Position numbers and translations under genes: made by a program. Shown in pieces: positions 34,381 to 43,948 of a stretch of 64,000 nt of DNA. This DNA comes from Escherichia coli (GTDB lineage Bacteria > Pseudomonadota > Gammaproteobacteria > Enterobacterales > Enterobacteriaceae). The notes under the pieces were generated by a model. It was given only the letters and a program-made list of their open reading frames with translations. It made no database searches and had not been told where the DNA came from. The stretch's first letter is position 1. The number at the start of each line of letters is the position of its first letter. The DNA is taken from assembly GCF_003334405.1 (NCBI RefSeq), contig NZ_QOWM01000004.1; one strand, given 5' to 3'.

Positions 34381-34410
34381 TGCACCATTCTGGGGCACCA
34401 ATCTGGTGCG
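34381..34410 (-). promoter_or_regulatory. Two overlapping NtrC-like enhancer sites (TGCACCA-N3-TGGTGCA type)
   Basis: TGCACCATTCTGGGGCA and GCACCAATCTGGTGC about 100 bp upstream of the sigma-54 promoter. Confidence 0.5.
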
Positions 34411-34640
34411 CTAAAATTGTGCACTCAACACAGTGATTATTTAGCGTAAAACCTGATGAAAAAACAATCTTTATGTAACGATTGTGTGATGATGTGGATA
34501 CAAAAAATTTACTTAATCAGCTGGAGATAGCAGATGGATGCACTAAATAAGTGCGTTGAGGTGGGCTGCAAAACAAAACGGCCTCCTGTCAGGAAGCCGC
34601 TTTTATCGGGTACTAAAGTTCTGCACCATCAGCGATGGAT

Positions 34641-35288
<648 letters not shown>

Positions 35289-35405
35289 TTAGATATATTG
35301 ATAAGAACAATTCTTATTTATCTGCTCGCCAGGAATTTTCGGAATAAATATGCTTTTGCATAATTCGATATATAAAGACGGTGTAGAGGAAAAGTAGCGA
35401 GAAAT

Positions 35406-35433
35406 TCTGCATGGTTATGCATAACCATGCAGA
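35406..35433. terminator. 28-bp near-perfect palindrome TCTGCATGGTTATGCATAACCATGCAGA directly after rhtA stop; probable rhtA terminator or protein-binding site
   Basis: Read in sequence. Confidence 0.45.
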
Positions 35434-35442
35434 AATGTAAAT

Positions 35443-36330
35443 TTAATTAATGTCTAATTCTTTTATTTTGCTCTCTTTGCGTACTGTCAGCGTAGACCCC
35501 ATTGAAGCGGCGATGATAGCGCCGAGCGCCAGTAGCTGTATGGGTGTCAGTGTTTCTCCGAGGAAAATCATCCCGGAAACGGCAGCCAGCGCCGGTTCCA
35601 TGCTCATCAGCGTACCAAATGTCCGTGTTGGCAAACGGGTGAGGGCAATCATTTCCAGCGAATAAGGCAGAGCGGTCGAGAGAATAGCGACAGCCAGACC
35701 CAATGGAATAACCGACCAGTGCCAGAGTGCTTCACCAGCCTGAAGCGCTCCAATTGGCACGAAAATTAACGCTGCAATCAACGAACCAATTGCCACCGTC
35801 GCAGGGCCATGTTCCGCTCCTGCGCGTTGCCCACTTAAAATGTAAATAGCCCAACAAGCCCCGGCCCCCAGTGCCAGCGCACAGCCGGTTAAATCGACAT
35901 GGGAAACGTCTTGCCCCAGCGGTAGCAGGAACCACAGACCAAGAACCGCCAGCACAACCCAGACGAAATCTACCGGGCGACGAGAAGAGAACAGCGCCAC
36001 CGCCAGTGGTCCGGTGAACTCCAGCGCCACCGCAATACCCAGCGGTACTGTCTGAATAGAAAGATAAAAAAGATAATTCATCCCACCCAGCGAAACGCCG
36101 TAAAACAACAGCGGTAACCGTTGCTCTTTGGCAAAGCGCAGTCGCCATGGCTTAAAGAACGCGATGAGGATCAGCGTTCCTAATGCCAGACGCAGCGCAG
36201 TGACACCCGGTGCGCCCACCAGAGGAAAAAGTGACTTAGCTAACGAGGCTCCACCCTGAATAGACGCCATGGCAACGAGCAATATGACTATTGGTAACCA
36301 GACCGGCATTTTACGTAATGAACCAGGCAT
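35443..36330 (-). CDS. rhtA: Threonine/homoserine exporter RhtA (EamA/DMT family)
   Basis: Start MPGSLRKMPVWLPIVILL…; ORF track extends to 36342. Confidence 0.9.
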   Translation of the reverse strand: MPGSLRKMPVWLPIVILLVAMASIQGGASLAKSLFPLVGAPGVTALRLALGTLILIAFFKPWRLRFAKEQRLPLLFYGVSLGGMNYLFYLSIQTVPLGIAVALEFTGPLAVALFSSRRPVDFVWVVLAVLGLWFLLPLGQDVSHVDLTGCALALGAGACWAIYILSGQRAGAEHGPATVAIGSLIAALIFVPIGALQAGEALWHWSVIPLGLAVAILSTALPYSLEMIALTRLPTRTFGTLMSMEPALAAVSGMIFLGETLTPIQLLALGAIIAASMGSTLTVRKESKIKELDIN

Positions 36331-36682
36331 CCTTTCTCCCACAAATATCTAGACTTAAGTAAAGCGTGGAGTGTACTGGATATACCCAATGCTGGTTGAG
36401 CATTTGTTGAAAAAATTTTCCCCCGTTTTGACTAAAATGCGCCAGGATTGATGGAATCATTAGTCTGGTGATTAGGAATAATCTGGATGAATGACAGGGA
36501 AAACATGCGTAATACTTACGCAGTTCTCTGAAAAAGTGATTTAAATTTAGATGGATAGCGGTGTATGGAAACGTTCTGTTACATGAAATGGCCCGTTAGA
36601 CATCACAAATCGCGAAGAGTTTCCCATTAATTTTTGATATATTTAAAACTTAGGACTTATTTGAATCACATTTGAGGTGGTT

Positions 36683-37198
36683 ATGAAAAAAATTGCATGT
36701 CTTTCAGCACTGGCCGCAGTTCTGGCTGTCACCGCAGGTACTTCCGTAGCTGCGACTTCTACTGTAACTGGCGGTTACGCACAGAGCGACGCTCAGGGCC
36801 AAATGAACAAAATGGGCGGTTTCAACCTGAAATACCGCTATGAAGAAGACAACAGCCCGCTGGGTGTGATCGGTTCTTTCACTTACACCGAGAAAAGCCG
36901 TACTGCAAGCTCTGGTGACTACAACAAAAACCAGTACTACGGCATCACTGCTGGTCCGGCTTACCGCATTAACGACTGGGCAAGCATCTACGGTGTAGTG
37001 GGTGTGGGTTATGGTAAATTCCAGACCACTGAATACCCGACCTACAAACACGACACCAGCGACTACGGTTTCTCCTACGGTGCGGGTCTGCAGTTCAACC
37101 CGATGGAAAACGTTGCTCTGGACTTCTCTTACGAGCAGAGCCGTATTCGTAGCGTTGACGTAGGCACCTGGATTGCCGGTGTTGGTTACCGCTTCTAA
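36683..37198 (+). CDS. ompX: Outer membrane protein X (8-stranded beta-barrel)
   Basis: MKKIACLSALAAVLAVTAGTSVA… ending …AGVGYRF. Confidence 0.95.
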   Translation: MKKIACLSALAAVLAVTAGTSVAATSTVTGGYAQSDAQGQMNKMGGFNLKYRYEEDNSPLGVIGSFTYTEKSRTASSGDYNKNQYYGITAGPAYRINDWASIYGVVGVGYGKFQTTEYPTYKHDTSDYGFSYGAGLQFNPMENVALDFSYEQSRIRSVDVGTWIAGVGYRF

Positions 37199-43849: not shown

Positions 43850-43948
43850 CCTGATGCGCTACGCTTATCAGGCCTACGCAGTACCTGCAATATATTGAAT
43901 CTGCAGGACTTTGTAGGCCGGATAAGGCGTTAACGCCGCATCAGGCAT
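43850..43948. repeat. REP/BIME unit, third copy
   Basis: Near-identical to 1819..1916 and 18523..18621. Confidence 0.8.

Follow-up and report, generated by a model that had tools for sequence, protein, structure and literature searches.

The spacer between rhtA and dps in E. coli carries a long inverted repeat just beyond the rhtA stop codon. The question raised by this locus is whether the repeat serves as DNA, for instance as a distal protein-binding site for dps, or as RNA, in the form of a hairpin at the end of the rhtA message. The repeat has already been noticed in the literature, but as DNA. Within a distal Dps footprint located 216–281 bp from Pdps lies a 30-bp inverted repeat, and binding of Dps to it was proposed, speculatively, to affect promoter topology (Antipov et al. 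2017, PMC5553809). That repeat is the same element as the one described here, its published distance fitting positions 35405–35434 of the 64-kb stretch of DNA that was analysed (hereafter, the window). While the earlier work takes the repeat for a DNA structure that Dps targets, the comparisons presented below point to a structure selected on the rhtA RNA. A literature search found no paper that contains the palindrome sequence and none that treats the repeat as a 3ʹ hairpin of rhtA; searches for rhtA together with terminator, Term-seq or bicyclomycin likewise found nothing.

A perfect palindrome beside the rhtA stop codon

A first-pass annotation of the window had described a near-perfect palindrome of 28 bp at 35406–35433, self-complementary over about 13 bp per arm, between the rhtA stop codon and dps. 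The palindrome is indeed there, with the rhtA stop at 35443–35445 (minus strand) on one side and the dps ATG at 35144 on the other, and it is one base longer at each end than had been claimed. It is a perfect 30-bp palindrome, TTCTGCATGGTTATG followed directly by CATAACCATGCAGAA, whose 15-nt arms are 100% complementary with zero spacer. No other zero-spacer perfect palindrome with arms of at least 8 nt occurs in the 64-kb window. The longest arm produced by chance in 200 first-order Markov simulations was 12, against 15 at this site, and shuffled sequence gave 0 matches to the 30-mer; the palindrome is not due to chance. Moreover, scans of the window found no other near-match to it, nor any half-site resembling its arms beyond chance expectation.

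On the minus strand, the palindrome starts 8 nt after the rhtA stop codon. As rhtA RNA, it folds into 13 bp closed by a UGCA loop, with an energy of −18.7 kcal/mol (z = −6.9). RNA from either strand forms 13 bp with a 4-nt loop at z of about −5 to −7, and a hairpin of single-stranded DNA reaches −13 kcal/mol. The flank on the 5ʹ side of the rhtA RNA reads UUUACAU, with no A-tract upstream of the stem. The tail after the palindrome is UUUCUCGCUAC on the sense strand, which in E. coli can also be written UUUCUCGCUACUUUUCC (UUUCUCG as RNA, borderline U-rich), and AUGUAAAUUU on the antisense strand; a consensus terminator scan made no call at the palindrome. The first reading of the site as lacking a clear U-tract on either strand is thus borne out. 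About 50 bp downstream on the rhtA transcript, ATGCTTTTGCATAA (35350–35363) shows 86% complementarity with the palindrome's right half (35415–35428) and could compete with it for pairing, but this is probably a chance match.

Table 1. Features of the rhtA–dps region, in window coordinates
Feature	Position	Strand	Evidence
Perfect 30-bp palindrome; stem-loop of the rhtA mRNA, 13–15 bp, UGCA loop	35405..35434	-	Folding; covariation in 58 distinct sequences; wobble test
rhtA CDS (threonine/homoserine exporter), stop at 35443-35445	35443..36330	-	ORF list; RefSeq annotation of identical E. coli K-12 KLY DNA
C-rich, G-poor 78 nt directly 3ʹ of the hairpin (19 C, 9 G)	35327..35404	-	C/G windows
TATACT, probable -10 hexamer of the main dps promoter	35191..35196	-	Read from the sequence
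dps CDS, next gene downstream	34641..35144	-	ORF list; K-12 KLY annotation
Canonical intrinsic terminator of dps: A-tract, 13-bp GC-rich stem, UUUUGUUUUG tail	34568..34603	-	Fold; Term-seq end

Over the 311 bp surrounding the palindrome, identity is 100% to many complete E. coli genomes and 99.7% to K-12. Read along the minus strand, the features are ompX (divergent), rhtA, a spacer of 298 bp, dps and glnH, in that order, with rhtA and dps transcribed in the same direction (Table 1). The dps start site, which we take to lie about 39 nt upstream of the ATG, together with the TATACT hexamer places the palindrome at roughly −220 to −250 relative to that start. This start site agrees with the published footprint at "216–281 bp from Pdps" that holds the 30-bp repeat. 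A promoter scan of 34500–36700 called no sigma-70-like sites, a result that has no bearing on the reported distal dps promoter P3.

Several other features were recorded in the window. The dps terminator, about 800 bp from the rhtA hairpin, is of canonical design (AAAAGCGGCUUCCUGACAGGAGGCCGUUUUGUUUUG). It gives sub-threshold Rfam matches to ctRNA_p42d, STnc70 and isrD (34568–34603, minus), most likely reflecting mere resemblance among terminator hairpins. Between rhtA and ompX, the K-12 KLY annotation places yliM, a small ORF of 21 codons (36565–36630, plus). Farther away, a Moco (molybdenum cofactor) riboswitch scores 103.6 bits at 3145–3289 (plus); this is the expected moaA leader.

Conservation of a hairpin at the rhtA 3ʹ end

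The comparison set, drawn from Enterobacteriaceae, comprised 80 loci encoding close relatives of Dps, one genome per species. Wherever a locus extends far enough, rhtA is found upstream of dps and on its strand. In 86% of 71 loci, an uninterrupted stem of at least 10 bp forms within the first 70 nt that follow the rhtA stop codon, and the stems across these 71 loci have a median of 13 bp and −18 kcal/mol. Stems of this length occur in just 1.4% of two other 70-nt segments from the same spacers and in 0.6% of dinucleotide shuffles. The hairpin starts 5–15 nt after the rhtA stop in nearly all loci, whereas the rhtA–dps spacer ranges from 237 to 408 bp, of which about 200 to 360 nt lie beyond the hairpin and before dps. 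Because the distance to the stop is nearly constant while the distance to dps varies widely, the hairpin is anchored to the end of rhtA and not to dps.

Some lineages have lost or replaced the element. Pseudocitrobacter (loci L017 and L018) and Trabulsiella (L051, L064 and L075) show no strong hairpin and keep dps behind a spacer shortened to 118–133 bp, a comparison that covers the dps gene and the spacer rather than the promoter. In Klebsiella (L060, L038, L078 and L052), unrelated GC-rich hairpins occupy the same position 3ʹ of rhtA, some of them with U-rich tails (e.g., AGGCCCUGA...UCAGGGCCUUUGAUU). Retention of the position with replacement of the sequence is as expected of an element that belongs to a transcript end. 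Two short contigs in the set, labelled Marinobacter sp. BW6 (L009, 703 bp) and Streptomyces polyasparticus (L077, 573 bp), encode Dps proteins 92–97% identical to that of E. coli and are probably enterobacterial contamination of those assemblies.

From Escherichia to Enterobacter, the lower stem (UUCUGCAUGG) does not change at all, a degree of sequence conservation that exceeds what pairing or structure alone strictly requires. The loop-less, perfect form of the palindrome occurs only in Escherichia (E. coli, E. albertii, E. whittamii and the cryptic clades); elsewhere the loop measures 4–9 nt. Comparison of the Citrobacter apex (GGTT-TGCATAACC or GGTTGCATAACC) with that of Escherichia (GGTTATGCATAACC) shows that perfect palindromy arose from one inserted A in the loop, which adds two pairs and leaves the UGCA loop. 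Loop-less palindromy is an incidental, lineage-specific detail of an older hairpin.

Covariation and the strand under selection

When 58 distinct hairpins were aligned with MAFFT by sequence alone, they fell into one register. In the 15-pair helix, 89% of cells can pair, a percentage that is in part built in by having chosen the hairpins through folding each locus, against 32–46% when the partner is slid by 1–3 columns. Changes on both sides are seen in 13 of the 15 pairs, and double-change cells number 164, compared with 56±6 in shuffles. RNAalifold independently predicted the same helix, with a covariation bonus. Within the genus Escherichia, E. albertii carries a swap from C-G to U-A, for which Salmonella has the U·G intermediate. 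Further replacements of both arms are listed in Table 2. The apical stretch flanked by the conserved arms differs among taxa both in sequence and in length (about 8 to 12 nt).

Table 2. Arms of the rhtA hairpin in representative taxa
Taxon	5ʹ arm / 3ʹ arm
E. coli	UUCUGCAUGG / CCAUGCAGAA
E. albertii	UUUUGCAUGG / CCAUGCAAAA
Kosakonia	UUCAGCAUG / CAUGCUGAA
Kosakonia, second form	UUUGGCAUGAG / CUUAUGCCAAA
Buttiauxella	UUUACCGUGG / CCACGGUAAA
Cedecea	UUUAAUGCGG / CCGCAUUAAA
Raoultella	GUUCUGCACG / CGUGCAGAAC

Wobble pairs distinguish the two strands, since wherever one strand has G·U, its complement is left with a mismatched A·C. On the rhtA sense strand, the 11 core pairs hold 30 wobble cells (G·U or U·G) against 3 mismatched cells (A·C or C·A); wobble cells are often common to related species, and the count represents roughly a dozen independent lineages. 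The excess indicates that pairing is selected on the sense strand, that is, on the transcript. Neither this asymmetry nor the positional controls are affected by the choice of hairpins through folding. Selection thus acts on the rhtA RNA and not on a duplex operator, a two-sided cruciform or an antisense RNA.

Variation within E. coli

A 44-bp query around the palindrome was found in 5,421 of 5,426 complete E. coli genomes, at a single locus in each; the search returned two "places" per genome because the palindrome matches itself on either strand. Of the 5,421 genomes, 1,333 differed from the query at one or more positions. The inner 28 bp were invariant in the divergent E. coli strains inspected. 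At the outermost pair, T35405 is replaced by A in ECE170, TUM17543 and EcPF18, three of the six strains inspected other than that of the window. This change shortens the stem by one pair, converting GCAGAAUUUCUCG in the rhtA RNA to GCAGAUUUUCUCG, and turns the tail into UUUUCUCG, which looks closer to that of an intrinsic terminator. Since 1,333 of 5,421 genomes differ anywhere in the 44-bp query, T35405A can be present in at most about a quarter of E. coli genomes. Additionally, E. coli 2017-02-1CC has an IS1B in the rhtA–dps spacer (L086, 2720–3417; equivalent to about window position 35313). The insertion sits between the palindrome and the dps promoter, leaving the hairpin beside rhtA and about 0.8 kb from dps.

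Relation to known repeats and RNA families

Repetitive extragenic palindromes (REP/BIME) resemble the rhtA palindrome in being intergenic palindromes of about 30 bp, imperfect to perfect, at the 3ʹ ends of genes, and REPs act as barriers to 3ʹ exonucleases. However, REPs are defined by many dispersed copies with a consensus, whereas the rhtA palindrome occupies one locus per genome in 5,421 genomes; to our knowledge, it bears no resemblance to the REP sequence. A dispersed repeat was therefore rejected as an identity for the palindrome, which is single-copy in E. coli genomes and has no other near-match in the window. True dispersed palindromic repeats do exist in the window, distinct from the rhtA hairpin. 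Matches to the Rfam families naRNA4 (CssrE) and ES036 (CssrF, three copies), which we take to be REP-derived, lie at 23821–23891, 1839–1880, 18543–18585 and 43870–43912, all on the minus strand.

A covariance model built from the alignment matched solely at the rhtA 3ʹ end in 478 kb. Rfam 15 placed no family at the palindrome, either in a permissive scan of 34400–36700 or in a scan of the whole window at gathering thresholds; the only match over the hairpin, to mir-19 (18 bits, E = 4), is at chance level.

A probable Rho-dependent-type stem-loop

In E. coli, Rho-dependent transcripts have precise steady-state 3ʹ ends just past stable stem-loops that lack a U-tract, with a mild enrichment of C over G downstream (Dar & Sorek 2018, PMC6061677). 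The diffuse tails left by Rho termination are trimmed back to the hairpin by PNPase and RNase II (Dar & Sorek 2018, PMC6061677). The rhtA hairpin shares the sequence features of this class. It is a stable stem-loop directly downstream of a gene, and it is followed by no U-rich tract: in the 58 sequences, the 10 nt that follow the stem contain 3.3 U on average, and in most taxa outside E. coli the tail is UAUCC, UAUAC or UAAAG. Furthermore, the first 40 nt after the stem contain a mean of 9.6 C and 4.4 G, with C exceeding G in 53 of 58 loci, a likeness to the class in base composition only. Because a stem without a U-tract and the downstream excess of C over G match the signature of Dar & Sorek, the rhtA hairpin is read as one of these protective 3ʹ stem-loops. 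Its folding energy is like that of intrinsic terminator hairpins. The perfect stem of 13–15 bp looks, at first sight, long for the class, and the sequence of the hairpin is unusually conserved across genera.

We therefore favor, with a probability of roughly 0.6, the reading that the palindrome mirrors, at the DNA level, a stem-loop of the very short 3ʹ UTR in the rhtA RNA, a hairpin of the Rho-dependent type that marks and protects the end of the message. The first-pass suggestion of a stabilising hairpin for rhtA, as distinct from a classical terminator, is well supported by the comparative evidence, in which the distance from the stop codon, the covariation, the wobbles on the sense strand and the lack of a U-tract all fit. 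Under this model, the ribosome would leave the rhtA mRNA at the stop codon, and RNA polymerase would transcribe the hairpin and then a C-rich, G-poor stretch. Rho would load on this stretch, the segment at 35327–35404 being a candidate Rho loading (rut-like) region, and would terminate transcription diffusely ahead of the dps promoter. The 3ʹ to 5ʹ exonucleases PNPase and RNase II would then trim the RNA to the base of the hairpin, which would define and stabilise the steady-state 3ʹ end of rhtA. As a consequence, the dps promoter, controlled by OxyR and sigma-S, would be kept free of read-through from rhtA. Base composition is what suggests the Rho dependence of rhtA, and exonuclease trimming and any effect on dps are likewise presumed rather than observed steps. 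Some direct termination driven by the hairpin may also contribute in E. coli, as the tail there contains several U residues: UUUCUCG, or UUUUCUCG where T35405 is replaced by A.

Published 3ʹ-end maps were searched for an end at this position. In the Term-seq tables of Adams et al. 2021, a strong 3ʹ end at 848340 falls exactly in the dps terminator sequence. Among the minus-strand ends listed, some fall at this terminator and inside dps and none in the rhtA–dps spacer: no listed minus-strand end lies at about 849.17–849.20 kb, where the palindrome would sit at roughly 849,172–849,201 by an offset estimated from the dps terminator, and none has a coordinate starting with 8491 or 8492; rhtA is not named. 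It is also unnamed in the TERMITe and SMRT-Cappable-seq supplements. The missing rhtA end may reflect no more than low expression of the gene or incomplete listings, and its absence is weak evidence because rhtA is weakly expressed.

Alternative explanations

The hairpin could instead be a weak intrinsic (Rho-independent) terminator of rhtA, in which the stem and an imperfect U-rich tail release RNA polymerase directly. We regard this as unlikely, although it has real points in its favor. The stem is similar in stability (−18.7 kcal/mol) to that of the canonical dps terminator and, like it, sits right after a stop codon; the E. coli tail, especially UUUUCUCG in the strains with T35405A, approaches a U-tract. 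Terminators can also drift between intrinsic and Rho-dependent modes, and transitional cases have been discussed (Dar & Sorek 2018, PMC6061677). Nevertheless, the marks of an intrinsic terminator, namely a U-tract of 7–8 nt after a GC-rich stem and an upstream A-tract (common, but not obligatory), are absent at rhtA. In most taxa the tail has no such U-tract, the mean being 3.3 U in 10 nt; no A-tract precedes the stem, whose base is AU-rich, unlike that of the dps terminator. The terminator scan, moreover, passed over the hairpin, and conservation falls on the stem and not on any U-run.

Readings at the level of DNA fare less well. One holds that the palindrome extrudes as a cruciform, or is otherwise bound by Dps or another nucleoid protein, and thereby sets the topology or activity of the dps promoter. 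It draws on the DNase I footprint of Dps over the repeat, obtained in one laboratory, and on a dps-promoter reporter that was 1.5-fold lower in a dps mutant (Antipov et al. 2017, PMC5553809), as well as on the preference of Dps for branched DNA (Melekhov et al. 2015); the palindrome is also perfect, AT-rich at its center and able to form the single-stranded DNA hairpin of −13 kcal/mol. Yet the footprint consists of a few protected bands at a 5–10-fold excess of protein, and Dps bound the distal fragment less well than the proximal one (Melekhov et al. 2015). A cruciform would require pairing on both strands, which conflicts with the 30:3 ratio of G·U to A·C. Perfect palindromy is confined to Escherichia, other taxa having a loop of 4–9 nt; the position is fixed relative to the rhtA stop rather than to dps; and Pseudocitrobacter and Trabulsiella retain dps without the hairpin, behind spacers of 118–133 bp. 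This reading is accordingly very improbable. A narrower version, in which the palindrome of Escherichia gained a second, DNA-level role as a supercoiling-sensitive cruciform bound by Dps, coupling the state of the nucleoid to the dps promoter (positive autoregulation), is a comparably long shot. Least probable is an operator at which a dimeric transcription factor such as OxyR, IHF or Fis would control dps, or from which one would act on rhtA. Operators are typically palindromic, and Escherichia, Salmonella, Citrobacter and Enterobacter share the same arms, TTCTGCATGG / CCATGCAGAA. An operator, however, should have fixed half-site spacing and conserve sequence rather than pairing. At this locus, anything from 8 to 12 nt separates the arms, and an apex so variable in sequence and length suits a rigid dimeric operator poorly. 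Both arms are replaced by compensating changes in other genera, with 13 of 15 pairs affected. The arms of 15 bp far exceed the length of an operator half-site, no similar half-site occurs elsewhere in the window beyond chance, and the wobble asymmetry indicates RNA. The earlier proposal of a distal protein-binding site for dps is therefore unsupported by conservation, given the variable arm spacing, the compensating substitutions and the hairpin-less taxa that keep dps; for Escherichia itself, it keeps a small probability.

Two particular regulators were considered and rejected. The only reported site of CecR (YbiH) is the cecR–rhlE spacer, and no paper was found that links CecR to rhtA. The ATGCAT at the apex recalls an NsrR-like half-site, but, judged by eye, its flanks are unlike the consensus, and the apex is not conserved beyond Escherichia, Citrobacter and Salmonella.

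Implications

The rhtA hairpin most likely belongs to a known class as an ordinary member, though one of unusual tidiness and conservation. Outside annotation, the finding is of minor importance. It gives rhtA a defined and conserved 3ʹ-end element and explains why the co-directional rhtA and dps behave as separate transcription units. It also offers an alternative at the RNA level for a repeat that one laboratory reads as a structural target of Dps, which bears on those who use the "dps regulatory region" fragment as a model Dps-binding substrate. Its clean covariation makes the element a convenient test case for stem-loops of the Rho-dependent type. Finally, threonine-production strains make use of rhtA, and how stable its 3ʹ end is could influence expression there.
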